30,533 nucleotides of DNA, from the NCBI GenBank assembly GCA_022561255.1, contig JADFRO010000001.1, positions 1 through 30,533 on the forward strand. The letters run 5' to 3'. Positions 17,228-30,533 of the stretch are shown here, in pieces (position 1 is the first letter of the stretch; the number at the start of each line of letters is the position of its first letter). A program made the translations under genes and the position numbers. The notes under the pieces were generated by a model. It ran no database searches and was not told the DNA's origin. It saw nothing but the letters and a program-made list of their open reading frames with translations. Source of the stretch: Planctomycetota bacterium. Its GTDB lineage: Bacteria; Planctomycetota; Phycisphaerae; UBA1845.

Positions 17228-17323
17228 TCCGATTGGAAGGAACACGGGCGGTGACCGCCGCTTGTCCCAAGGACGCGGGACCAGGCAGTCGTGGTTGGTT
17301 ATCGCCGATGTGTAGCAGCGATC

Positions 17324-18334
17324 ATGAAAGAGAATTCCTTGATTGACGAATTCCTAAACTACCTGAAGTTCGAGCGCCACTTCTCGCCCCACACGGCGAA
17401 ATGTTACGCGGCCGACTTGGCGCAGTTCTGTGCGTTTCTCAAGGGCGACACAGCCGCGGCAACGGGGCGTCAGAACTTCACGAGGCCCACGCCGAGACTG
17501 GTGGTGGGCGGTTCCTCTTCCGATGCGGCGAGTCCTGCCACGGCGGTTGTCTCGGAATCCAACGTCCAGCAGAAGATTCGCGACGTCGATACCGAGAAGA
17601 TCAAGTCGTTCCTGGCTTTCTTGGGTACGCAGAGTTATTCAAAGTCCACCGTCGCGCGAAAGCTGGCGACCCTGCGAAGCTTTTACAAGTTCTGCCTTCG
17701 TCGTGGTTATGTCTCCACGCACCCGCTGGCGACGATCCGCACGCCGAAGCAGGAGAAGCGACTGCCGAAATTCCTCGAGATGGACCAGATTACCAAGCTG
17801 CTTTCGACTCCCGACGACAACACGCTTCTGGGTTCGCGCGATCGCGCTATGCTCGAATTGTTGTTCTCGACGGGCGTCCGCGTTAGTGAGTTGGTCGATC
17901 TGAACTTCACCGATACGGATTTCGAGGGTCAGACCGTCCGCGTGCGCGGCAAGGGCAAGAAGCAGCGAACCGCTCCGATGGGGCCAACGGCGATTGCATC
18001 CATCCAAAAATACTTGCAACTTCGTCGTGCGGACGCGCGATCGGCATCGTTCGATCAGAACGCCTTGTTCGTCAACAAGCATGGTCAGCGGCTTAGTACC
18101 CGAAGCGTCCGTCGCAAGCTGGACAAGTATCTCGCCGAGGCGGGTCTCGATCCGTCGATTAGTCCTCACACGTTGCGACACAGCTTTGCCACGCACATGC
18201 TTAACAACGGCGCGGATCTTCGAAGCGTACAGGAACTTCTGGGTCACCAGTCGCTTTCTACGACGCAGGTGTATACGCACCTTACGACGCCGCGGCTGAA
18301 GGCCGTCTACGACGACGCCCATCCGCGCTCGTAA
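17324..18334 (+). CDS. xerC: XerC/XerD-family tyrosine recombinase
   Basis: FLNYLKFERHFSPHT..Y..DL core-binding start, ARKLATLRSFYKF, PKQEKRLPKFL, and a complete catalytic set: R (TGVRVSEL), K (GKGKKQR), HxxR (HTLRHSFATH), H (LLGH), Y (TQVYTH). xerC rather than xerD is a soft call. Confidence 0.9.
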   Translation: MKENSLIDEFLNYLKFERHFSPHTAKCYAADLAQFCAFLKGDTAAATGRQNFTRPTPRLVVGGSSSDAASPATAVVSESNVQQKIRDVDTEKIKSFLAFLGTQSYSKSTVARKLATLRSFYKFCLRRGYVSTHPLATIRTPKQEKRLPKFLEMDQITKLLSTPDDNTLLGSRDRAMLELLFSTGVRVSELVDLNFTDTDFEGQTVRVRGKGKKQRTAPMGPTAIASIQKYLQLRRADARSASFDQNALFVNKHGQRLSTRSVRRKLDKYLAEAGLDPSISPHTLRHSFATHMLNNGADLRSVQELLGHQSLSTTQVYTHLTTPRLKAVYDDAHPRS

Positions 18335-19861: not shown

Positions 19862-20195
19862 GGCGCCGTCCGGTAACCGAGTTCCCCGCCTGACGTTGTT
19901 GCATCGTCACATCTGTTGGCACTTTGGTCAAAGGCGTCCGGTTGTCCGGGCGCGCGAGCAGTGGTGAACGCTGCGCGCGTTCCAGACGGGCGAATAAGAC
20001 GGAAACGCCAAAAAGCGGACCAACCGCTGCAAGAAAAAACTTGACTTTTATCCGTGTTGTGAAGCCGCCAATGATGATTTCACCCAAAAGCGGCTCAGAA
20101 GTTTGCGGCTGTTTTTTTTATATTCTACCGTTCGGGCGAGTACCAGAACCTGTTTTCCAGTACCCAAAAGAAGGTGCGAACTAAGGGCTTCAATT

Positions 20196-21662
20196 ATGGC
20201 ACTGACCATCACGAACACGAACACGATTATGCTGCTGAACATTCTGAACCGCCACACCGCAGCCCAGGCGAACACGATCCGCCAGCTCTCCACGGGTAAA
20301 CGGATCAACAGCGGAAAGGATGATCCAGCCGGTCTCATCGCCCTGCAAAACCTAAACGCCGAGCTGACGGCGGTGAACGCTTCGCTGATCAACAACCAGC
20401 GGACGGACTCGATGTTGACCGTGGCGGACGCCGCGATCGGCGAGTTGAGCAAACTGCTCAACGAGATTGAGACGCTCGTGGTCAGCTCGACCAGCAGCGC
20501 CAATCTCACCAATTCGGAGATTGCCGCCAACCAGGCGCAGATTGACGACGCATTGACGGCGATCGACCGTATCGTGAACACCACGAACTTCAACGGCAAG
20601 AGGCTTCTGGACGGTAGCTTCTCGATTCAGACCGTCGGTGTCAGCACTCAATTCATCGACAGCCTGCGGGTCTTTTCGCGGAGTCAGGTGACCACCGATA
20701 CGGCGCTCACCGTGACGCGAGTCGCTTCCGCGCAGCTCGCGTCAGCGACCTTCGCATTTGCGGGCGGTACGGCCAGAACGTCCGGCACGACCCAAATCGC
20801 CATCACCGGAACGCTGGGTACGGCGACGGTGACGCTGACCAGTGGATTGACCCAGGCGCAGATCGTTTCGACGATCAACGCGGCCAAGAGCCAAACAGGC
20901 GTTTCGGCGATCCAGAACAGCACCAACATAAAACTCAACTCGACAACCTACGGCACAGATGCGTTCACAAGCGTGCAGGTGCTTTCCGGAGGGACGATCA
21001 ACGCGACCTACGGCACATCGACCGGTGATGGCAACACGGCAAACGATATGTCGAACGTGTCCAAGCAGGCGGGCATCGACGCCAACATGACCATCAACGG
21101 ACAGGCGACCGGTGCGGACGGGTTGGACATCACGTATAGTGCAAACGGACTGAGCCTGGAGTTTACCCTCGACAGCGATTTTGGCAGCGGAAACTCCGGC
21201 GCGACGACCACCACCGTCTTTACCGTCAGGGCGGCGGGTGGCGCGACATTCCAGCTCGGCACGACCACCAGAACGCGGGCAACAATCGGTCTCGACTCGC
21301 TGGCGTCCTACAACCTCGGTGGTGGTAACGGCACGGCGAAGCTCAGCGAGCTCAAGGCCGGCGGCGCTGTGGATCTCAAGACGGACGCGGGTGGTGCGCT
21401 AAGCGCCGTTCGTGAGGCGATTGCCGAGGTGGCCAGCACCCGAGGCCGAATCGGTGGATTCCAGAGGTTCCAGGTTGGAAGTGCGATTTCCTCGCTTCAG
21501 TCGGCGCAGAAAGGTCTGACCGAAGCAACCAGTTTGATCGGCGACACGGACTTCGCAATCGCAACCGCCAGACTCAACCAGGAGACCGTGCTCATCCAGG
21601 CGGCGATACAGCTACTCGGCGTCGCCAACCAGACGGGTTTACAGATCCTGTCACTGCTCTAA
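20196..21662 (+). CDS. fliC: Flagellin (divergent, 488 aa)
   Basis: LSTGKRINSGKDDPAGL, IDRIVNTTNFNGKRLLDG, C-terminal RGRIGGFQ...DTDFA...ILSLL, with a Thr/Gly/Ser-rich variable middle. Start set at ATG 20196. Confidence 0.9.
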   Translation: MALTITNTNTIMLLNILNRHTAAQANTIRQLSTGKRINSGKDDPAGLIALQNLNAELTAVNASLINNQRTDSMLTVADAAIGELSKLLNEIETLVVSSTSSANLTNSEIAANQAQIDDALTAIDRIVNTTNFNGKRLLDGSFSIQTVGVSTQFIDSLRVFSRSQVTTDTALTVTRVASAQLASATFAFAGGTARTSGTTQIAITGTLGTATVTLTSGLTQAQIVSTINAAKSQTGVSAIQNSTNIKLNSTTYGTDAFTSVQVLSGGTINATYGTSTGDGNTANDMSNVSKQAGIDANMTINGQATGADGLDITYSANGLSLEFTLDSDFGSGNSGATTTTVFTVRAAGGATFQLGTTTRTRATIGLDSLASYNLGGGNGTAKLSELKAGGAVDLKTDAGGALSAVREAIAEVASTRGRIGGFQRFQVGSAISSLQSAQKGLTEATSLIGDTDFAIATARLNQETVLIQAAIQLLGVANQTGLQILSLL

Positions 21663-22647: not shown

Positions 22648-25437
22648 CTAGGGCGCCGAATCACGGCGGCGGCGGTTTTCTCTTAGCAACTGATCAAACT
22701 CCTCAGCGAAGCGCCGTCCCCCCATTTCAGGGTGCAAGAACTTCTGCTGTTCGATCACTTTAATGATTCCGTCCGGTGGATGCTGCAACTGGGTTCGGCA
22801 GCGCAGGTCGAGAAGCAGTGCTTGCCAACGTACTTCCAGCTCGGTGGACAGAGTCGTGGCGAGTCGATTGAAGGTCGGAAGCGCCTCTTGAAGTTTTCCC
22901 TGTTTCATCTTGGCGTCTGCGAGGCCAAAAACCGCTCGCAGTTCGAGTAAACTGGGCGGCGGAGCGTCCAACCCGTCAGCGTCGACGAGCGGTGCGAACA
23001 TCGCTTCCGCAACATCGAATCGTCCGACCAGAAGGTTCGCCTCCGCCAATTGGATGGCCAACCCGCGTGTATGTTCGATGGACAGGGAATGTGGATACTG
23101 ACGTGACCAACGCTCAAGTTGCTCAGCGAGAACCAATGCGGTTTTCGCCTTGCGAGCGGCGGCGCCCGTATCGCCGGCGGAGAGGAGCCTTTCCCACTCA
23201 CTGAGGGTCGCGTCGTATAGTGATTGAAGTGTTTGACCGGCACCTTCGGGATCCGCTGTGACGTAGGCCGAGATCGCATCTGTGGCTTCGTCTAGTTGTC
23301 CCATCGCTTCATGCGCAAGGAGCCTGATCCGCCAGAGCTTACCCTGTAGATCCGGCGTATCGGGGTAACGGGTCTCAAAGTTCGTGAGTCGCCGCAAGGC
23401 GATAGCCGGCCGATTGATAAGAGGAAGGATGTCGACGTCGGCAACGGCGAGCAGGCCGTCCGCGAGAAGTCGTTGTACGGCTTGCTTTTGTATGCCGTCA
23501 ACCTCGCGAGCCCTCTCGGCGATTCGCATCAAATCGCGGTAGGCAGAGAGTACGGCGTCCACATTTTCCGTGAAGCCTGCGTCGCGGGTTCGTGCAGGCG
23601 CTTGCTCCTTGACCACACGCACGAGCGAGAGCAGCCGGAGGTGCGCACCGCTCAGATAGTGCTCGTGGCCGGGGTCGACCTGGGCGTATTCGGCGGCGGC
23701 TTGTGCGTATTCCCCCCGGTGGCTGAGTAGTTGAGCGTAATAGAACCGCCAGTACGTAGCCTCCTCCGAGTTCGGGTGGTGGTGAAGCAGCGTTCGCAAC
23801 GCGTCCGCGTAGAATTCGCCGACGTCACCAGCCGGATCACCCACATCTTGGGGGTTATCCTCAGAAGTATACGCCGTTGCGGCGAGTTGAACGGCGAGCG
23901 TGGCTGCTTCCAGAGCATCGGGCGATTCGCCGTGGGCGCGGGCAATTTCGAGGAAACACTTCGCAGCACGCACGACTTCGCCCCGGCGATAGTGGGTCAC
24001 TCCGAGTTGTCGAAGAATCTCCGGTGCGAAGGCTCGCGTCGTGTCGTCGAGTCCGGCGAGGAATTTTTCACCGGTTGCGACGGCGCGATCGAGAAGGCTG
24101 GCCGTTTCGGTATCGTCGACCGACTCCTGGGAGAGCAGAGAGGCCAGTCGTGCCGCCAAGTCGACGGGGTCAAGCTGCTCGATGGGCGTATCCCGCGGTA
24201 TCGTTCGATTGAGCGCCGCGTAGAGTTCGTCGCGGCGGCCGGCGTACTCGACGATAAGTTGAGCAAGCGCCTGCCAGGCGTCGCTGCGATAGGTAGCGGC
24301 ATCGACGGACAGTCCGGCCTTCTCCGCGGCGTCGGCGTGTGCGCGGTTCAGCGACCGTTCGAGTATAGCCGCCACCATCGCAACGCCGAACGCATCGACC
24401 TGATCCTGTTCCGCAACGCCGCTGAGTTTTCGCAATCGCTCTATACCTGCGGCTGCAGCCTTCCACCGTCGAGCGTCCCGGTCGTTTCGAATTCCTTCGA
24501 TCTCCGCCAGGGTGACCGCCCACGCCACGCCGCGACGTTCGGTCGGATCGGTCAATCGACTGGCGAGTATGCGCGTATGGTCGAGAAATTCCCTTGCTTT
24601 GTGGTGGTCGTTGAGGCGCCGGAAGCTCATGCCCGCCAGTAGCGTGGCGGGAATCTGCACGCGGCTTTGCTCGTGCGGTGTCTTGAGGATCGTAGGTTTG
24701 TCGGTGAACGTTGTGAGGATTTCGTTAAGCTGTCGGGCGAGCGCCGGATCGTCGGGCTCGCGATGGAGGCAGTCATAGAAAAGCGTCCAGAGCAGGAGGT
24801 AATCGGCGTTGGGCGCAATCTCATCGAGCTGATCGAGGTAGCCCGTTCCCTCGATCCGTCCGAACTGAGATGTGGACAGTTGATCGATACGCACGTACTC
24901 GTCTGCGATGCGCTGGATCAAGGATCGAACCACATCGATCGCCTGCGCGGAGATGGGGGCGAGGCGCTGACGGTCATCGTCGTTTCCGCCGCTGTAGAGA
25001 ATGTTCGTAGCATACGTCTCCGCCTGCTTATAGAGGATCGAGTGGCCGAGCGTGAACAGCCAGTCGAAACGGCGCACGTCGTCCGGGTTCTGCTCGACGA
25101 GTTGCACTAAGATTTCGTTGGCCTGGACGATCGCGCGCCGTCGCTCCTCGACGGGCTTGGTGCCGTCGTCGAACGTCGCGAGTTTCACTTCGCGCGTCAT
25201 GAGCATTACGTCGATCGGGCTCTCGGGAGGGAATTCCTTCAGATGTAGTTCGAGTAGCTCATGGAGTCCGCGCTTTTTCAGACCTTCGCGAAACAGTGCG
25301 GTGCTCAGGCGGGTCTCTTCCGCGGGTCTACCGGGCGTGACTTCGGAGTTCGCGCGCACCGAATCCTGGGCACGCGCGGCGCCCGCGAAGATCAGAGGGA
25401 GGAGCATCAGCGTGACGTTAAGGTTCAGCGAAGGCAA
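22648..25437 (-). CDS. Large exported TPR/alpha-solenoid protein (~920-930 aa)
   Basis: Signal-peptide-like LMLLPLIFAGAARA|QD, then a helical Ala/Leu-rich body with TPR-like units (LGVTHYRRGEVVRAAKCF, YAQLLSHRGEYAQAAAEY, LADAKMKQGKLQEALPTF). Start is TTG 25437 or ATG 25407; the ORF-track start at 25656 lies well inside the exbD gene. Confidence 0.8.
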   Translation of the reverse strand: MPSLNLNVTLMLLPLIFAGAARAQDSVRANSEVTPGRPAEETRLSTALFREGLKKRGLHELLELHLKEFPPESPIDVMLMTREVKLATFDDGTKPVEERRRAIVQANEILVQLVEQNPDDVRRFDWLFTLGHSILYKQAETYATNILYSGGNDDDRQRLAPISAQAIDVVRSLIQRIADEYVRIDQLSTSQFGRIEGTGYLDQLDEIAPNADYLLLWTLFYDCLHREPDDPALARQLNEILTTFTDKPTILKTPHEQSRVQIPATLLAGMSFRRLNDHHKAREFLDHTRILASRLTDPTERRGVAWAVTLAEIEGIRNDRDARRWKAAAAGIERLRKLSGVAEQDQVDAFGVAMVAAILERSLNRAHADAAEKAGLSVDAATYRSDAWQALAQLIVEYAGRRDELYAALNRTIPRDTPIEQLDPVDLAARLASLLSQESVDDTETASLLDRAVATGEKFLAGLDDTTRAFAPEILRQLGVTHYRRGEVVRAAKCFLEIARAHGESPDALEAATLAVQLAATAYTSEDNPQDVGDPAGDVGEFYADALRTLLHHHPNSEEATYWRFYYAQLLSHRGEYAQAAAEYAQVDPGHEHYLSGAHLRLLSLVRVVKEQAPARTRDAGFTENVDAVLSAYRDLMRIAERAREVDGIQKQAVQRLLADGLLAVADVDILPLINRPAIALRRLTNFETRYPDTPDLQGKLWRIRLLAHEAMGQLDEATDAISAYVTADPEGAGQTLQSLYDATLSEWERLLSAGDTGAAARKAKTALVLAEQLERWSRQYPHSLSIEHTRGLAIQLAEANLLVGRFDVAEAMFAPLVDADGLDAPPPSLLELRAVFGLADAKMKQGKLQEALPTFNRLATTLSTELEVRWQALLLDLRCRTQLQHPPDGIIKVIEQQKFLHPEMGGRRFAEEFDQLLRENRRRRDSAP

Positions 25438-25918
25438 TGTTCTTGCACCCGGCGCGTAGCGCAGCGTTCCAGCAGCCCACGACGTGATCCCATCGAACCT
25501 CGGCCTCCGACACGATGACCACCGGCGTTTCGACGTCGAAGCCCGGCTGTTGCTGAATCCGTCGGAGGAAATCGGGCAACTCGGCGATGGTGCGCGGGGC
25601 GGGCTGAAACCGGTCGACCTGAATCGCGAAATCGTCGAATGACGGTCCTGTCCCAACCAGACGAATCACGATCGGGCTGAACGGTAACGCGACCGCGCTT
25701 CCCGTCTGCGGCATTTCGGCGGCGAGAATTCCCTCCGGTCGCTCGAATGTACTGGTGACAATAACGAAGCTGAACAACAGGAACGTCATGTCGATCATCG
25801 GAGCCATGTTCAAGACGATCGCACGTCTGCCCGACCTGGTTCGGCGTTTGGTCCGGCGCGACCTCGCCCGGTCGGACCTGTCACGTTTTCCGGCGCCGTT
25901 TCCGCTGGGTTCAACCAT
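25418..25918 (-). CDS. exbD: ExbD/TolR-family protein (paralog 2)
   Basis: Basic N-terminus, TM with the conserved Asp LNMAPMIDMTFLLFSFVIV, and a C-terminal periplasmic domain ending AGCKNIAF. Confidence 0.87.
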   Translation of the reverse strand: MVEPSGNGAGKRDRSDRARSRRTKRRTRSGRRAIVLNMAPMIDMTFLLFSFVIVTSTFERPEGILAAEMPQTGSAVALPFSPIVIRLVGTGPSFDDFAIQVDRFQPAPRTIAELPDFLRRIQQQPGFDVETPVVIVSEAEVRWDHVVGCWNAALRAGCKNIAFAEP

Positions 25919-25919
25919 G

Positions 25920-26378
25920 CTACGGTGTCTCCCCGACGTGAGCGACGATGTTTAACATCTTGATGTCATTGTCCGCCACAACTCGCATGGCAGCCCGAAC
26001 GTCGGCGTAGGGCAGCCGCCGGTCCGCTCGTACGACCGCCTCGAGGTTGACCGATTCTCTTTTCATCGCCGCGAGACGCTCTGCGATCACGTGCAACGGT
26101 TCCGGCGCGTTGGGGCCCAGGCTGTAGAGCGCGCCGGCGGTCGAAGATGCACCCGAGCCGGGTATTCGGCAATTGATGACGACACGTTCCGGCATCCTCG
26201 CGAGCTGAGCCTTGCTTTCGTCCGGCTTGGGTAATTCCATACGCACCTGCTCCGCCGAGGACAAGTGACACACCAACATGAAGAAGATCGTTAGAATAAA
26301 CATCATGTCGAACATGGGCGTGGCGTTAAAGGCCATGACTTTCGCTGGCAATCGGCGATGGTGGCGTGTGTGTCGCAT
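25920..26378 (-). CDS. exbD: ExbD/TolR-family protein (paralog 1)
   Basis: FNATPMFDMMFILTIFFML TM with the conserved Asp; ELPKP; VVRADRRLPYADV C-terminal motif. Confidence 0.9.
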   Translation of the reverse strand: MRHTRHHRRLPAKVMAFNATPMFDMMFILTIFFMLVCHLSSAEQVRMELPKPDESKAQLARMPERVVINCRIPGSGASSTAGALYSLGPNAPEPLHVIAERLAAMKRESVNLEAVVRADRRLPYADVRAAMRVVADNDIKMLNIVAHVGETP

Positions 26379-26398: not shown

Positions 26399-27178
26399 TC
26401 AAACGGATGCTTGCGGTGTCGTCTCGGCGGACCCCTGCCCCGGCTCTTCCCCGCTGCCCGGTGCGAACACCGACAACATTCGGTCAGCCGTCAGGGCGCA
26501 CTCGGCTGTCAACACGTCGATTCGGTTTCTAAACAGGGCATAGATGCTCAGCGACGGAATCGCGACGGCGAGCCCCCAGAACGTTGTGATCAGCGCCACG
26601 GCCATCCGATCGGCAACGATGCGCGCACCGGGAAGTCCGTCGGCGGCGTGAATCTCCGCGAACAACAGGATCATGCCATAAACCGTGCCGAACAGCCCGA
26701 TCATCGGTGAAACGTTCCCGATGACGTTGAGGTATTCGATCTTGCGAAAGAACCCGGCGGATCGTTCGTCGAGTGCATCCTCAACCGCACGCTCCATCGC
26801 GTCGTATCCGTTGGACGCTTCGAGAAGACCTGTGTTGAGGATGTACCCCATCATGCTGGGGTCGTCCGCGGTGAACTGGATGGCTTCGAGGTATTTCTTG
26901 CCGTGAATCAACTCGCGCGTGTGTTCAATCGCCTCCGCCGGCACGATCGTCGCACGGCGAATCGAAAGGCCATGCTCGATCGTCAGCGCCAACATTACGA
27001 CCGACAAAACGATCAACAGGTACGCGATCCAGCCGCCCTTAACCACGAAAAAGTCGAAGTACTTCAGCCCTTCGACGGTCCCGCCGTCCGCATCGCTTTG
27101 CGACCACACCTGGGATGTGGACAGAAACAACACCACCAGAACCATCACGGCGATCATACCGACGAGTCGTGTACGCAC
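26399..27178 (-). CDS. exbB: MotA/TolQ/ExbB proton-channel protein
   Basis: GGWIAYLLIVLSVV, YLNVIGNVSPMIGLFGTVYGMI, ALITTFWGLAVAIP..Y..F. GTG start with AGGAGAAGG upstream. N-terminal signal-peptide-like segment. Confidence 0.93.
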   Translation of the reverse strand: MRTRLVGMIAVMVLVVLFLSTSQVWSQSDADGGTVEGLKYFDFFVVKGGWIAYLLIVLSVVMLALTIEHGLSIRRATIVPAEAIEHTRELIHGKKYLEAIQFTADDPSMMGYILNTGLLEASNGYDAMERAVEDALDERSAGFFRKIEYLNVIGNVSPMIGLFGTVYGMILLFAEIHAADGLPGARIVADRMAVALITTFWGLAVAIPSLSIYALFRNRIDVLTAECALTADRMLSVFAPGSGEEPGQGSAETTPQASV

Positions 27179-27231: not shown

Positions 27232-28320
27232 TCACCGCGACGTACCTGTACGCAGGCGTGCGAGCATCGCCTGCGCCTGACTCTTGACTTTTTCGCTCGC
27301 CCCAACGTGTGCGAGGCATTCCGAAAGCATGACCCTCGCTCGATCCCTATTGCCCAATTGTTCGAGCGCTGTGGCTGCGCCGAATAATGCGTCGGCGGCG
27401 CGGGTATCGTCGCCCATATGGATCACCACACGCATAAAGGGCCATGCGGCGCGAATCACCTCTTCACGTGTCTTCGCCGACCGAAGAAGACTCTCGCCCT
27501 TGATGAGCAGAAAATCCGCCAGCACCGACTCCGGGCAGTCGCGGATGGCGCGGTCCAAGGCGGCGCGCACGGTCGCTGTCGTGGCCCCGCCGAGCACTTC
27601 TCGAAACGCGGACGTCAGAATCGTGTAAACCTGCTCCGATCGAATCGACGCTGCGATCGGAAGCGCGATCGCACGCATCGCCGCTGAGGTCGCCCGTCGA
27701 TCGCCGTTGGCCTTTAATATCTTGAAGCGTACCAGCGCAAAGAGCAGGTGTTGCAATGGTTCGGGCGCAGCCGCCAGGGCCAAATCCAACTCTCGAATCG
27801 CACGACCGAACTTGGCAGTACGACGTTGAGGAATTCGTTGTGGAATCAACCGGGCGGCCGCCCGCGCACCGGACCGCTTCCCACGAGCGAGACGAACGAA
27901 GTAGCCCGTTGCTTTGTCGATCTGGTCCGCTCGATCGTACGCAATGATCAACCGCGCGGCGATCAACTCACTCCAGAAATCGGTACTGAGTTTCAGCGCG
28001 CGCTCGTATCGCGCTGCCGCCTTTTGCGGTTCACCCGAAGCGAGGAAGCGCTCGGCTTCATTGAAGTCGTCGAAAACGCCTGTACGGTCGACGATGATCA
28101 AATCAATATCGCCGATATGAACCGCTACGCTCATGCCTTCGGCCGATCGAAACCGAAGTTGTCCGTCCTCGAGCGTGCGAATCCGTGCGCCTCGATAGTT
28201 TTGTTTGCCCACAACGATCTGATCGGCGCGCGTGGGGAGTACCCATAGCAGCGCAACGCAGGCCGCTGCCACTCGGCAAAGTGTAGCGCCGCCTAGGATT
28301 GTTGATCTAGGGTAGGTCAT
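27232..28320 (-). CDS. Exported TPR protein (362 aa) with a small N-terminal beta-rich domain
   Basis: Signal-like AAACVALLWVLPTRA|DQI; TPR-like AERFLASGEPQKAAARYERAL and ADALFGAATALEQLGNRDRARVML. ATG 28320 overlaps the vWA gene stop (14-nt overlap). Confidence 0.78.
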   Translation of the reverse strand: MTYPRSTILGGATLCRVAAACVALLWVLPTRADQIVVGKQNYRGARIRTLEDGQLRFRSAEGMSVAVHIGDIDLIIVDRTGVFDDFNEAERFLASGEPQKAAARYERALKLSTDFWSELIAARLIIAYDRADQIDKATGYFVRLARGKRSGARAAARLIPQRIPQRRTAKFGRAIRELDLALAAAPEPLQHLLFALVRFKILKANGDRRATSAAMRAIALPIAASIRSEQVYTILTSAFREVLGGATTATVRAALDRAIRDCPESVLADFLLIKGESLLRSAKTREEVIRAAWPFMRVVIHMGDDTRAADALFGAATALEQLGNRDRARVMLSECLAHVGASEKVKSQAQAMLARLRTGTSR

Positions 28321-29275
28321 ACTCGGAAACGAACTTGAACTCTCCGCCGTGCTCCCTCGCAATCCCTTCCAGGATTTCGCGCCCGCCCTGGTCGAGGTAA
28401 GCGATCGTGTAGATCCTCGTGTGCCGTCCTCGGTTCCACGCATCAAGCTTGGCGGGCAGGTCTGGATCGAAGCTGATGCCGTCGCTGAGAAGGTAGATGA
28501 GATCGGGCTCCATCGCGAGCGCTCGGCGCAAGGCCAACTCCGGTCGGGTGCCCCCACCGGCGGCGACGTTATCAAGAAACTTAAAGAAGTCCCTCCGATG
28601 GGCGTCGATCGCATTCACCAGTCGCCGGGGCGGGTTCTCCAGAGGCGCCCCCGAATTAAAGAAGATGACGTGAAACTTCTGACTACGCCGAAGTGCGGAT
28701 ATCGATCGTTTGAGCTCGGCCCGCACGTGAAGGAACGTATCGACCATCGAGCCGCTTCGGTCCACCACGTACACGATCGACCGTACGCCCGGCGCTGATC
28801 CGCCGACGCCGAAAAACTCCGGTCCCGCTCCGCCACCCGCCGACAGGCCGTACTTGCTAAGATCCAAAGCGCCCACCGAGCCCGCTCGGATTCCGAGGAT
28901 CGAAAACTCCGGAGCCTTCAGCGATCGCGGCTGAACAAGTTTCGCAAGCGCCACCGCGTCGCGATTCGGTGTGAAGCGCTTAGCCAGCGGGTCGGGCGTG
29001 TCTCGCTGGCGCTTCTTATCCGGGACGTTTGCAGCAGCCGTTGGAACGGCGTCGATCTCGCCGATGACCTGAGCGTGCGCTACGGGAAGCCTCGGCTCCT
29101 CGTTGGGCGAAAAGGGAAACACCAGGAGAAACATACTCGCGAACGCTACGGTGTGTACCAGGACGGACAGCACCCAAGCCCCGGCGACGCCTCGCCCGGT
29201 CAGACTCATCGCGGCGGAGCCTTCGTGCCCCGATCGATGCGGATCGATGATCTCGACGGCGTCCACGTGGGTCAT
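28307..29275 (-). CDS. Membrane-anchored von Willebrand factor A (vWA) domain protein
   Basis: ATG 29275 preceded by GAGGA; single TM AWVLSVLVHTVAFASMFLLVF; Pro/Gly-rich linker; MIDAS YVVDRSGSM, Thr in GGTRP, Asp in YLLSDG. Confidence 0.88.
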   Translation of the reverse strand: MTHVDAVEIIDPHRSGHEGSAAMSLTGRGVAGAWVLSVLVHTVAFASMFLLVFPFSPNEEPRLPVAHAQVIGEIDAVPTAAANVPDKKRQRDTPDPLAKRFTPNRDAVALAKLVQPRSLKAPEFSILGIRAGSVGALDLSKYGLSAGGGAGPEFFGVGGSAPGVRSIVYVVDRSGSMVDTFLHVRAELKRSISALRRSQKFHVIFFNSGAPLENPPRRLVNAIDAHRRDFFKFLDNVAAGGGTRPELALRRALAMEPDLIYLLSDGISFDPDLPAKLDAWNRGRHTRIYTIAYLDQGGREILEGIAREHGGEFKFVSEYDLP

Positions 29276-29532
29276 GGGGAATTCCTCGGGCCTGCCGCTA
29301 CGGTGCCACGCGCGAAAGCCGTTGTGGTGGGTGCGGCGGGCATCGGCGGCGCTTCGCCGGGCCGGGCACGCCAACACCGAGAAAAGTGTAGTTCGACGGA
29401 CCTCACCGGTCAACGTAAAACGCAAACGCCACCGATGCATAACGATGCGCCGGTAGGGCACGACGGAGCGGCTGGCGATCATCCCCCCACACTCTGCTTT
29501 CCGGGCACGCGAGCATGGGGTACACTCCCGAC

Positions 29533-30533
29533 ATGCACCGACGCGATATGGCTGTAAGTGGGCTGACGCGGAGCATGCGGCGCGTACTCATCGCGTGCTT
29601 CGCGTTGGCCGTCTTACCGTCCTCCTCCGTCGCCGACGAGTCCGGTGCCAAGGGCCGCACCGACCAGAACCCCAGCGACATCGCGGCGTCGCCGGTTCAC
29701 GTCTCCCTTCCGGAAGGCTTCGACGACGAAGCTTCCTTCGCTCGATCCGTTCAAGACGACGTGAAGCGACTCATCCAGCGGGCGGAGCAAGCTCAAAGCC
29801 GCGCGCTCCAGGCGGAGCTTTTCCTGGCTGCGGCGAATCGGCTTCTCGCCTCCGGAATGGAGCTAGCTTGCACGAGTCGATTGATGCGGCTCAAGATCGC
29901 CGACGAGGCTCCGACCGACTCGTCGCTGGGAGCGCTCCTGGATCGTGTCGACGTGCTGCTTGGTAATTGCGAGACCGCATCAGGCGATCTCGAACGGGGG
30001 ACCACTGATGCGCCCGACGGAGCGGAGGCTACCGAAAGCGCAGACAGGTCTCGCCGTGAAACGATCACCCACCGTCTCGCCGCGCTGCGCGCGTTCGCCC
30101 AAGCGGTTCGAGCCTACGCCCTTCCCGGGGGCGGTTCACGCTCGGCGCGATCAGCCGCCTCGGGTTTGTCGTTCCTTCGTGAAGATCACGATCCCCAAAC
30201 CGCTGCCGCCGCTTCGTTGTGGCAGGCTGCGCTTCGAAGTGAGGAGGCTGAGGGAACCCGTGCTCTTTCGATTCTGGACGAAGCTACCGCGGATCTGCCG
30301 GCTGGTTCGTTGCCCTATTCCTTCTTCTCGCGACTCTTGCGATGCCGCCTGCTGGCTGAGCGGGGTTCATGGGCCGCGTCGCTTGCCATGGTCATGCAGG
30401 TCGAGGAGCGGTGTAACGACTGGTTCACCGACGACGACCGACGCGAGCTCGCCCTGCATAGCTGCGCCGCGCTTCAGATCGACATTCTTAGGCAGTGGCA
30501 CGACGGAATCGCGACACCGGCGGGCGATGAGCA
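29533..30533 (+). CDS. Exported alpha-helical hypothetical protein, truncated by the right edge
   Basis: Not in the ORF track. My translation from ATG 29533 (or 29548/29575) is open to the edge: ..MRRVLIACFALAVLPSSSVA|DESG...; signal-peptide-like N-terminus and an Ala/Leu-rich helical body. Confidence 0.7.
   Translation, partial: MHRRDMAVSGLTRSMRRVLIACFALAVLPSSSVADESGAKGRTDQNPSDIAASPVHVSLPEGFDDEASFARSVQDDVKRLIQRAEQAQSRALQAELFLAAANRLLASGMELACTSRLMRLKIADEAPTDSSLGALLDRVDVLLGNCETASGDLERGTTDAPDGAEATESADRSRRETITHRLAALRAFAQAVRAYALPGGGSRSARSAASGLSFLREDHDPQTAAAASLWQAALRSEEAEGTRALSILDEATADLPAGSLPYSFFSRLLRCRLLAERGSWAASLAMVMQVEERCNDWFTDDDRRELALHSCAALQIDILRQWHDGIATPAGDE

Follow-up and report, generated by a model that had tools for sequence, protein, structure and literature searches.

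In diderm bacteria, the Ton and Tol systems are the only well-understood routes by which the energy of the inner membrane is delivered to the outer envelope. The question of whether another type of transducer exists is raised by a 30,533-nucleotide stretch of DNA from a Planctomycetota bacterium of the class Phycisphaerae (lineage UBA1845; GenBank assembly GCA_022561255.1, contig JADFRO010000001.1, positions 1–30,533 of the forward strand), which in its whole length is referred to here as the window. A gene on its reverse strand (28307–29275) encodes a 322-residue protein (P0001), in which a single transmembrane (TM) helix with the Ser-x3-His pattern of TonB and TolA is followed by a flexible tether and a vWA (von Willebrand factor A) domain with a metal-ion-dependent adhesion site (MIDAS). 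The first-pass annotation of this DNA had proposed that the protein is the energy transducer of its operon, with the vWA domain in place of the C-terminal domain of TonB. Conservation and synteny support this proposal, and the same model was reached by AlphaFold 3 (AF3) in the work of Williams-Jones et al. (2025, Mol Biol Evol 42:msaf138, PMC12204202), who described vWA "motor-driven force transducers" starting from a seed in Tichowtungia aerotolerans. The idea of the vWA transducer is already published as an in-silico proposal, and the value of the present analysis therefore lies in confirmation and in sharper residue-level predictions rather than in discovery. No later experimental paper on vWA transducers was found in a literature search.

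The preferred reading, to which we give a probability of about 0.7, is that of a transducer coupled to a proton motor. The analysis directly supports the domain architecture, the topology cues, the residue conservation, the synteny of the operon and the absence of a TonB_C or Plug match from the genome. In the mechanism that we infer, the N-terminus of about 26 residues, which includes a G-H-x-G-S-A-S motif, would stay in the cytoplasm, and the TM face W34-S37-H41-[F/L]45-M48-[V/P]52 would dock on the outside of a pentamer of the co-encoded ExbB. The pentamer would hold a heterodimer of ExbD1 and ExbD2. The flexible tether of about 95 residues would cross the periplasm, and the MIDAS would grip an acidic residue of an envelope partner, for which the candidates are three co-encoded secreted proteins resembling tetratricopeptide repeat (TPR) proteins, or an outer-membrane protein. 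The flow of protons through ExbB and ExbD would then transmit force to the vWA head and pull on the partner bound to it. If this is true, a third type of transducer, with an integrin-like metal-dependent head, would widen the known repertoire.

The transmembrane anchor and its conservation

Features are given on the reverse strand unless stated otherwise. The vWA gene, defined as an open reading frame (ORF) and by its translation, starts with an ATG at 29275, with AGGA 8 nt ahead, and ends with the stop codon at 28307–28309; an identical 322-residue protein (P0002) is present in a public collection. The Kyte-Doolittle scan reveals one hydrophobic segment in the whole protein, at residues 35–53. 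In the AlphaFold2 (AF2) model, built from a 99-sequence alignment, the single TM helix covers residues 27–55 (29111–29197), with a predicted local distance difference test (pLDDT) value of 94. The codons of Ser37 (tcc, 29165–29167) and His41 (cac, 29153–29155) both lie inside WVLSVLVHTVAF, which is translated as W-V-L-S-V-L-V-H-T-V-A-F; a codon check places the segment and both residues exactly where they had first been read.

At E ≤ 1e-3, 411 proteins matched in the first search. Those listed, 120 in number, were mostly full-length, with about 50–68% identity, and the named sources among them were Phycisphaerae or Planctomycetota metagenome-assembled genomes. In 30 homologues of 50–68% identity, residues W34, S37, H41, F53 and P54 are invariant together with the five MIDAS residues, and the rest of the TM segment varies. 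The conservation was followed further in 80 species-level Phycisphaerae loci of GTDB, which were fetched by two peptide patterns of the vWA domain, avoiding selection on the anchor motif. These loci contain 77 complete vWA genes, two genes cut by contig ends and one broken gene. The W-x2-S-x3-H motif is kept in all 77 complete orthologues, so that the Ser-x3-His pattern, whose conservation had been named as a check of the proposal, proves to be invariant. The entropy per position in 78 sequences is 0 bits for W34, S37 and H41, 0.6 for M48, 1.3 for F/L45 and 1.4 for V/P52; the other, neighbouring TM positions are freely variable, with 1.8–3.0 bits. As judged from the sequences, such conservation of the motif is far beyond chance.

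The conserved anchor residues are spaced as i, i+3, i+7, i+11, i+14 and i+18, and therefore lie on one helical face. Within this face, S37, H41, M48 and V52 stand exactly in the SHLS register of TonB and TolA (i, i+4, i+11, i+15). The full SHLS motif of TonB is not present, as position i+11 is Met in 71 of the 78 sequences and Leu in four (Met48, codon 29132–29134), and position i+15 is Val or Pro. The first-pass annotation had described the distal Leu and Ser as not matched, which is right as to the identity of the residues, but the near-invariant Met holds the position of the Leu (H+7). Natural Ser-to-Ala anchors, in which W-x2-A-x3-H is found with the His kept, occur at locus L108 and in protein P0141. 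At L108 the His is retained with an ExbB gene about 1.1 kb downstream, which suggests that His is the indispensable residue of the anchor.

A hydrophobic segment near the N-terminus might also be a cleaved signal peptide, in which case the vWA protein would be an adhesin that is either secreted or soluble in the periplasm. Ordinary N-terminal signal peptides are indeed present in many of the vWA domain's more distant homologues. The present segment, however, has its start near residue 27, behind an N-terminal stretch that is conserved (about 33 conserved residues lie ahead of it), and no conserved small-x-small site follows it; its helix is 29 residues long and contains invariant polar residues. 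Furthermore, in a sister subfamily a zinc ribbon of cytoplasmic type precedes the TM helix, which supports the N-in topology and likewise speaks against cleavage. A signal peptide, by which the transducer proposal could have fallen, is thus extremely improbable.

The anchor of this sister subfamily (alignment A4; e.g., P0213 and P0155) reads M-P-W-x-I-S-x3-H, and the zinc ribbon has the form CxxC...CPxC. Its members often stand in tandem, as pairs or triplets of paralogues, upstream of ExbB and ExbD genes (L118, L123, L149, L173). In the protein from the window, the cytoplasmic N-terminus carries at residues 12–28 (29192–29242) the conserved pattern S-G-H-x-G-S-A-S-x2-L-T-G-R, with G27 near-invariant. 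To our knowledge, this S-G-H-x-G-S-A-S motif has no counterpart in TonB and TolA.

Motor genes in the operon and in the wider family

The genes for the vWA protein, a small TPR protein, ExbB, two ExbD subunits and a giant TPR protein lie on one strand and are joined by overlaps or short gaps. CP070744, a 5.7-Mb chromosome of the Phycisphaerales, carries the six genes in the same order, at 53% identity. Among the 69 loci with enough downstream DNA, ExbB follows the vWA and small TPR genes in 65. The Phycisphaerae clade offers a clean case, with one copy per genome and a near-fixed order of the six operon genes and a divergent gene for a TPR-like protein. The four remaining loci (L022, L043, L079, L081) carry the vWA and small TPR genes together and keep W-x2-S-x3-H, with no exbB or exbD within 8 kb. 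At L043, the small TPR gene is directly followed by the giant one, which gives the appearance that the three motor genes were cut out.

The ExbB/TolQ-type proton channel subunit is encoded at 26399–27178 (PF01618, E 3e-26; the best NCBIfam match is tolQ, below the cut-off). It is followed by ExbD/TolR-type subunit 1 (25920–26378; PF02472, E 2e-15; best NCBIfam match tolR, below the cut-off) and subunit 2 (25418–25918; PF02472, E 1e-12), whose TM Asp residues lie in TPMFDMMF and APMIDMTF, respectively. The small secreted TPR protein of 362 residues (27232–28320; matches to TPR_14 and related families) is syntenic in 75 of the 80 loci, and its gene starts with an ATG at 28320, giving a 14-nt overlap with the stop region of the vWA gene. 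The giant secreted TPR protein of about 919 residues (22648–25407; TPR matches) is syntenic in 62 of the 80. Farther upstream of the vWA gene, a region of 240 bp parts it from the divergent gene (29515–30531, forward strand), which runs off the window and encodes a secreted helical-repeat protein of TPR-like character with no Pfam family; this gene is conserved next to that for the vWA protein in 51 of the 80 loci. Its orthologue at L001 (L001:8466–9554, reverse strand) is TPR-like by ESM Atlas features and structure, to be taken as a lead only. The divergent protein may be the seventh component of the system.

Two side observations concern ExbB (26399–27178). The protein opens with a signal-peptide-like segment, MRTRLVGMIAVMVLVVLFLSTSQVWSQ. 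In its M-A-V-A-L stretch, a Val, read by eye and without alignment, stands at the presumed TM3 site, which we take to be the site of the conserved TM3 Glu in Escherichia coli ExbB and TolQ.

The combination of TM-anchored vWA proteins with TPR proteins is also known from operons of the BatA/BatB type. The vWA and TPR proteins could accordingly form a Bat-like envelope complex, which would be co-regulated with the ExbB/ExbD genes and not mechanically coupled to them, as the four loci that keep the vWA and small TPR genes without adjoining motor genes would allow. Such a complex would leave the invariant polar Ser and His inside the TM helix unexplained, it does not account for ExbB being adjacent in 65 of 69 loci, and no gene for a MoxR ATPase or a DUF58 protein is found among the ORFs of the window. 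We consider it very unlikely. The BatA/BatB proteins of the aerotolerance operons share with the present protein a membrane-anchored MIDAS vWA domain beside TPR proteins; they differ in their anchor and in their MoxR/DUF58 partners, in place of which the present operon has the ExbB/ExbD motor.

The relation between anchor and motor can be followed beyond the close orthologues. An exhaustive HMMER search gave 3013 representatives (50% identity) at E ≤ 1e-10. Among the best 150, 84 have Ser-x3-His in an N-proximal TM segment, usually as W-x2-S-x3-H; in most of the remaining ones, the N-terminal region is longer and an ordinary signal peptide is present. In the sampled neighbourhoods, the Ser-x3-His members, sometimes as tandem paralogues, adjoin ExbB, TPR proteins and ExbD, the last encoded two or three times. 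For the signal-peptide forms, the neighbour is either MotA_ExbB, with ExbD absent, or a vWA gene that gives a faint ExbD-like match. These neighbourhoods fit the two vWA families of Williams-Jones et al. A second scan, with a distant subfamily, brought loci from Planctomycetia, Pirellulales, Isosphaeraceae and Verrucomicrobia. On this sequence evidence, the family of vWA transducers appears to be widespread.

The wider sample comprised 51 vWA genes with at least 5 kb on both sides, and ExbB was scored within 5 kb. Both the motif and ExbB are present for 26 genes, the motif only for 11, ExbB only for four and neither for 10. ExbB is therefore near 26 of 37 genes with the motif and near four of 14 without it (odds ratio 5.9, Fisher p 0.011, uncorrected for kinship). 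All four genes with ExbB only keep the His, with Ser, Ala or Thr four residues before it, and two of them had been missed by the hydropathy filter. A correlation between Ser-x3-His and adjacent exbBD, which had been put forward as a check of the transducer proposal, thus exists as an association in the close loci as well as in the wider sample, but it is not strict. As ExbB is absent from four of the 69 close loci and from the surroundings of 11 of the 37 motif genes, its adjacency is not obligatory, and a strict correlation was not found.

One candidate link within the family was rejected. A Rosetta-stone fusion of the beta-rich N-terminal part of the small TPR protein to a vWA domain (e.g., P0205) gave a BLASTP E value of 0.21, with the region in question unaligned; the query began at 28251 and lacked the first 23 residues.

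The vWA head and the tether

The vWA domain covers residues 151–322 (28310–28825) and includes a packed lead-in, GPEFFG-GG, and a conserved tail, FKFVSE-DLP. It is recognized by Pfam, AF2 and Foldseek. The Pfam VWA match extends over residues 167–318 (E 1e-6, above the cut-off) and covers positions 2–164 of the 174 in the profile. The AF2 model has pLDDT values of 91–98 over residues 151–320 and 78 for the last two residues. Foldseek relates it to the vWA domains of CMG2/ANTXR2, CLCA1, ITIH1/4 and the calcium-channel alpha2delta subunit, with E values of 1e-10 to 1e-11 and TM-scores by target of 0.7–0.8. A sequence search of the PDB found a sole match, the vWA domain of ITIH4, and the anchor is absent from every solved relative.

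The full MIDAS set that had been read from the sequence is confirmed. It consists of D172-R-S174-G-S176 (28748–28762), which is aligned to VFVIDKSGSM of ITIH4, Thr243 (28547–28549), aligned to the GGT of ITIH4, and Asp265 (28481–28483). None of the five residues (D172, S174, S176, T243 and D265) varies among 30 or among 99 homologues, and the DxSxS motif and the Thr match the positions of the ITIH4 domain. Directly after the last vWA strand, the C-terminal tail (residues 309–322, 28310–28351) carries the almost invariant sequence E-H-G-G-E-F-K-F-V-S-E-x-D-L-P. Such an acidic tail beside a MIDAS domain could be an intramolecular pseudo-ligand.

The tether between anchor and head (residues 56–150, about 95 residues; 28826–29110) is mostly disordered and contains conserved islands, as seen from the AF2 pLDDT values, the conserved columns and the composition. 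The pLDDT is 73–78 over residues 51–80 and 47–61 over residues 81–150, and no regular structure is modelled from residue 56 to about 150, with secondary structure lacking altogether over residues 56–138. The islands are VFPF at 52–55, A-x-V-I-G-x-I-D-A at 65–76, P103, and P122/G128/G130 (PE-SI-GI). The description of this linker as rich in Pro, Ala and Gly needs to be qualified. Residues 57–165 contain 14.7% Ala, 11.9% Gly and 11.0% Pro, and their sum of 37.6% is a modest enrichment over the 27.6% of the whole protein. With 11% Pro and no Pro-repeat tract in this region, however, the linker is not a polyproline rod, nor is it a Pro-Glu/Pro-Lys spacer like that of TonB.

The tether is conserved in its C-terminal half (122–165) and in the segment 65–76, and these segments may be sites at which ExbD or the TPR proteins dock. 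Williams-Jones et al. predicted a beta-strand "motor box" shortly after the TM helix, which would bind the ExbD/TolR dimer. In the present protein, the semi-conserved A-x-V-I-G-x-I-D-A lies at 65–76, but AF2 shows no strand there. A complex prediction of the periplasmic parts of ExbD1 (39–152) and ExbD2 (58–166) with tether residues 52–135 returned a score of 0.00 without controls, which speaks neither for nor against binding. A more speculative and rather doubtful extension is that the Phycisphaerae linker is active in itself. Its motifs VFPF, A-x-V-I-G-x-I-D-A, FTPN, PE-SI-GI, YGL and GPEFFG would dock the ExbD dimer and the three TPR-like proteins, and the MIDAS head would form a metal-dependent bond with a partner in the outer membrane or cell wall. 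The whole would be a third functional class of Ton/Tol-type machine, serving neither receptor-gated import nor the mobilisation of Pal. This would fit the coexistence of the vWA module with a separate Tol-like cluster and, in some relatives, with TonB_C genes.

The same features of the tether can be read in terms of a static anchor or assembly scaffold. The Ser/His face would then dock on the motor or in the membrane, and the protein would only position the TPR proteins or fasten a stator-like complex to an envelope structure, with no force acting on a MIDAS ligand. The co-conservation of the three secreted TPR-like proteins, the short conserved tether motifs, which are of the type bound by TPR domains, and a vWA domain without the C-terminal allosteric helix all agree with such a scaffold. 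It is, however, unlikely, as the anchor retains the exact motor-coupling residues of TonB and TolA, and the TM Asp needed for the use of protons is present in both ExbD copies.

Several points weigh against the motor-coupled transducer. Contact between the TM helix and the motor was obtained neither physically nor in a model, and no ligand of the vWA head was identified. At the distal Ser position of SHLS, the 78 sequences have Val or Pro and never a conserved Ser. Motor genes are missing near four of the 69 close loci, and in the wider sample ExbB is lacking within 5 kb of 11 of the 37 motif genes (for one of them, a third paralogue, it lies at 5.1 kb). Finally, the vWA domain ends six residues past its last strand and lacks the C-terminal helix that integrin I domains use for force sensing. 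The MIDAS module had been called force-responsive, and this integrin-style analogy is weak: owing to the missing helix, an integrin-like gating by force cannot be assumed, and any force on the vWA domain enters through its N-terminal strand.

Relation to published vWA transducers and to the Ton and Tol systems

The SHLS-type vWA proteins of Williams-Jones et al. consist of a TM helix with an SHLS motif that includes a conserved His, about 100 residues of disordered sequence, termed domain II, and a vWA domain at the C-terminus. They were reported from Proteobacteria, Planctomycetes, Verrucomicrobia, Bacteroidetes and Rhodothermaeota. In the AF3 models of that work, the conserved His lies at the TonB/TolA site on the edge of the motor, and the function is stated as unknown. 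The present gene shares with them the TM helix with the conserved His, the disordered domain II, the vWA head and the neighbouring motor and TPR genes. Leaving aside the "motor box", it has every testable feature of the family, the assignment being based on the described features. The differences are that the vWA gene is here the first of the operon and not downstream of the motor genes, that conservation extends to a giant TPR gene and to a third TPR-like gene, which is divergent, and that the MIDAS, which is unmentioned in the paper, is complete and invariant. The second published family, the trans-pore-helix vWA proteins, pairs with TolQ only, lacks SHLS and replaces TolR/ExbD inside the pore. 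The coupling of a related vWA domain to a channel of TolQ-like type is common to it and the present system, and the two differ by the two ExbD genes and the SHLS-type anchor found here.

With TonB (E. coli S16/H20/L27/S31), the vWA protein has in common the N-in single-pass anchor, the Ser-x3-His face, a hydrophobic residue at H+7, the flexible tether and the partnership with ExbB/ExbD. Unlike TonB, it has no TonB_C domain, its tether contains 11% Pro and no Pro-repeat, the distal Ser is replaced by Val or Pro, and no Plug receptor is found in the genome. With TolA it shares the Ser-x3-His anchor, the TolQ/TolR-like motor and a TPR protein reminiscent of CpoB/YbgF (weak TIGR02795 matches). In contrast to TolA, it has neither domain III nor a helical domain II; Pfam and NCBIfam find no TolA C-terminal domain in it, and no TolB or Pal gene is present in the operon or the window. 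Lacking both a TonB_C and a TolA domain, the vWA protein is not a member of the TonB or TolA family.

The source genome (2.88 Mb, 84% complete) contains no match to TonB_C (PF03544) and none to Plug, and the motor of the operon is therefore without a canonical partner in this genome. As most relatives of the same family also give no TonB_C match, both the genetics and the interpretation are simpler here. The genome has three MotA/ExbB-type genes, which belong to the ExbB of the operon, a flagellar MotA-MotB pair and a second ExbB-ExbD pair. The flagellar cluster with MotA/MotB lies on contig C361. The second ExbB-ExbD pair (contig C3, L177:22–10057) is flanked by an M56/BlaR1-like protein, a 1097-residue TPR protein and a 993-residue PD40 propeller, an arrangement that resembles Tol but includes no recognisable TolA or Pal. 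On contig C77, a TolB_N-like match (C77:1651–1929; 30.6 bits, above the cut-off) lies inside an open frame of 1756 residues, which is unusual for TolB.

Of 151 genomes sampled from the class, the vWA gene (E ≤ 1e-40) is present in 65, TonB_C in 77 and both in 24, where independence of the two would predict about 33. Some families have only the vWA gene or only TonB_C, and some have both. A replacement of TonB by the vWA system was rejected on account of the 24 genomes with both and of a distribution by family that is only partly complementary. A replacement of Tol-Pal is weakened by the Tol-like cluster on C3 and the TolB_N-like match on C77. The vWA machine therefore does not simply stand in for TonB, and, in view of the Tol-like cluster, it does not obviously stand in for Tol-Pal either.

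Elsewhere in the window lie housekeeping and other genes, including those for UvrA, PdxA, PDH E1, MnmE, flagellin and a methyltransferase. The UvrA-like ORF of 649 residues (169–2118) has the UvrA interaction and DNA-binding domains and, by Pfam, only a fragment of the ABC domain. A few kilobases from the operon, a XerC/D-type tyrosine recombinase (17291–18334) and the flagellin gene (20103–21662) are encoded on the forward strand.

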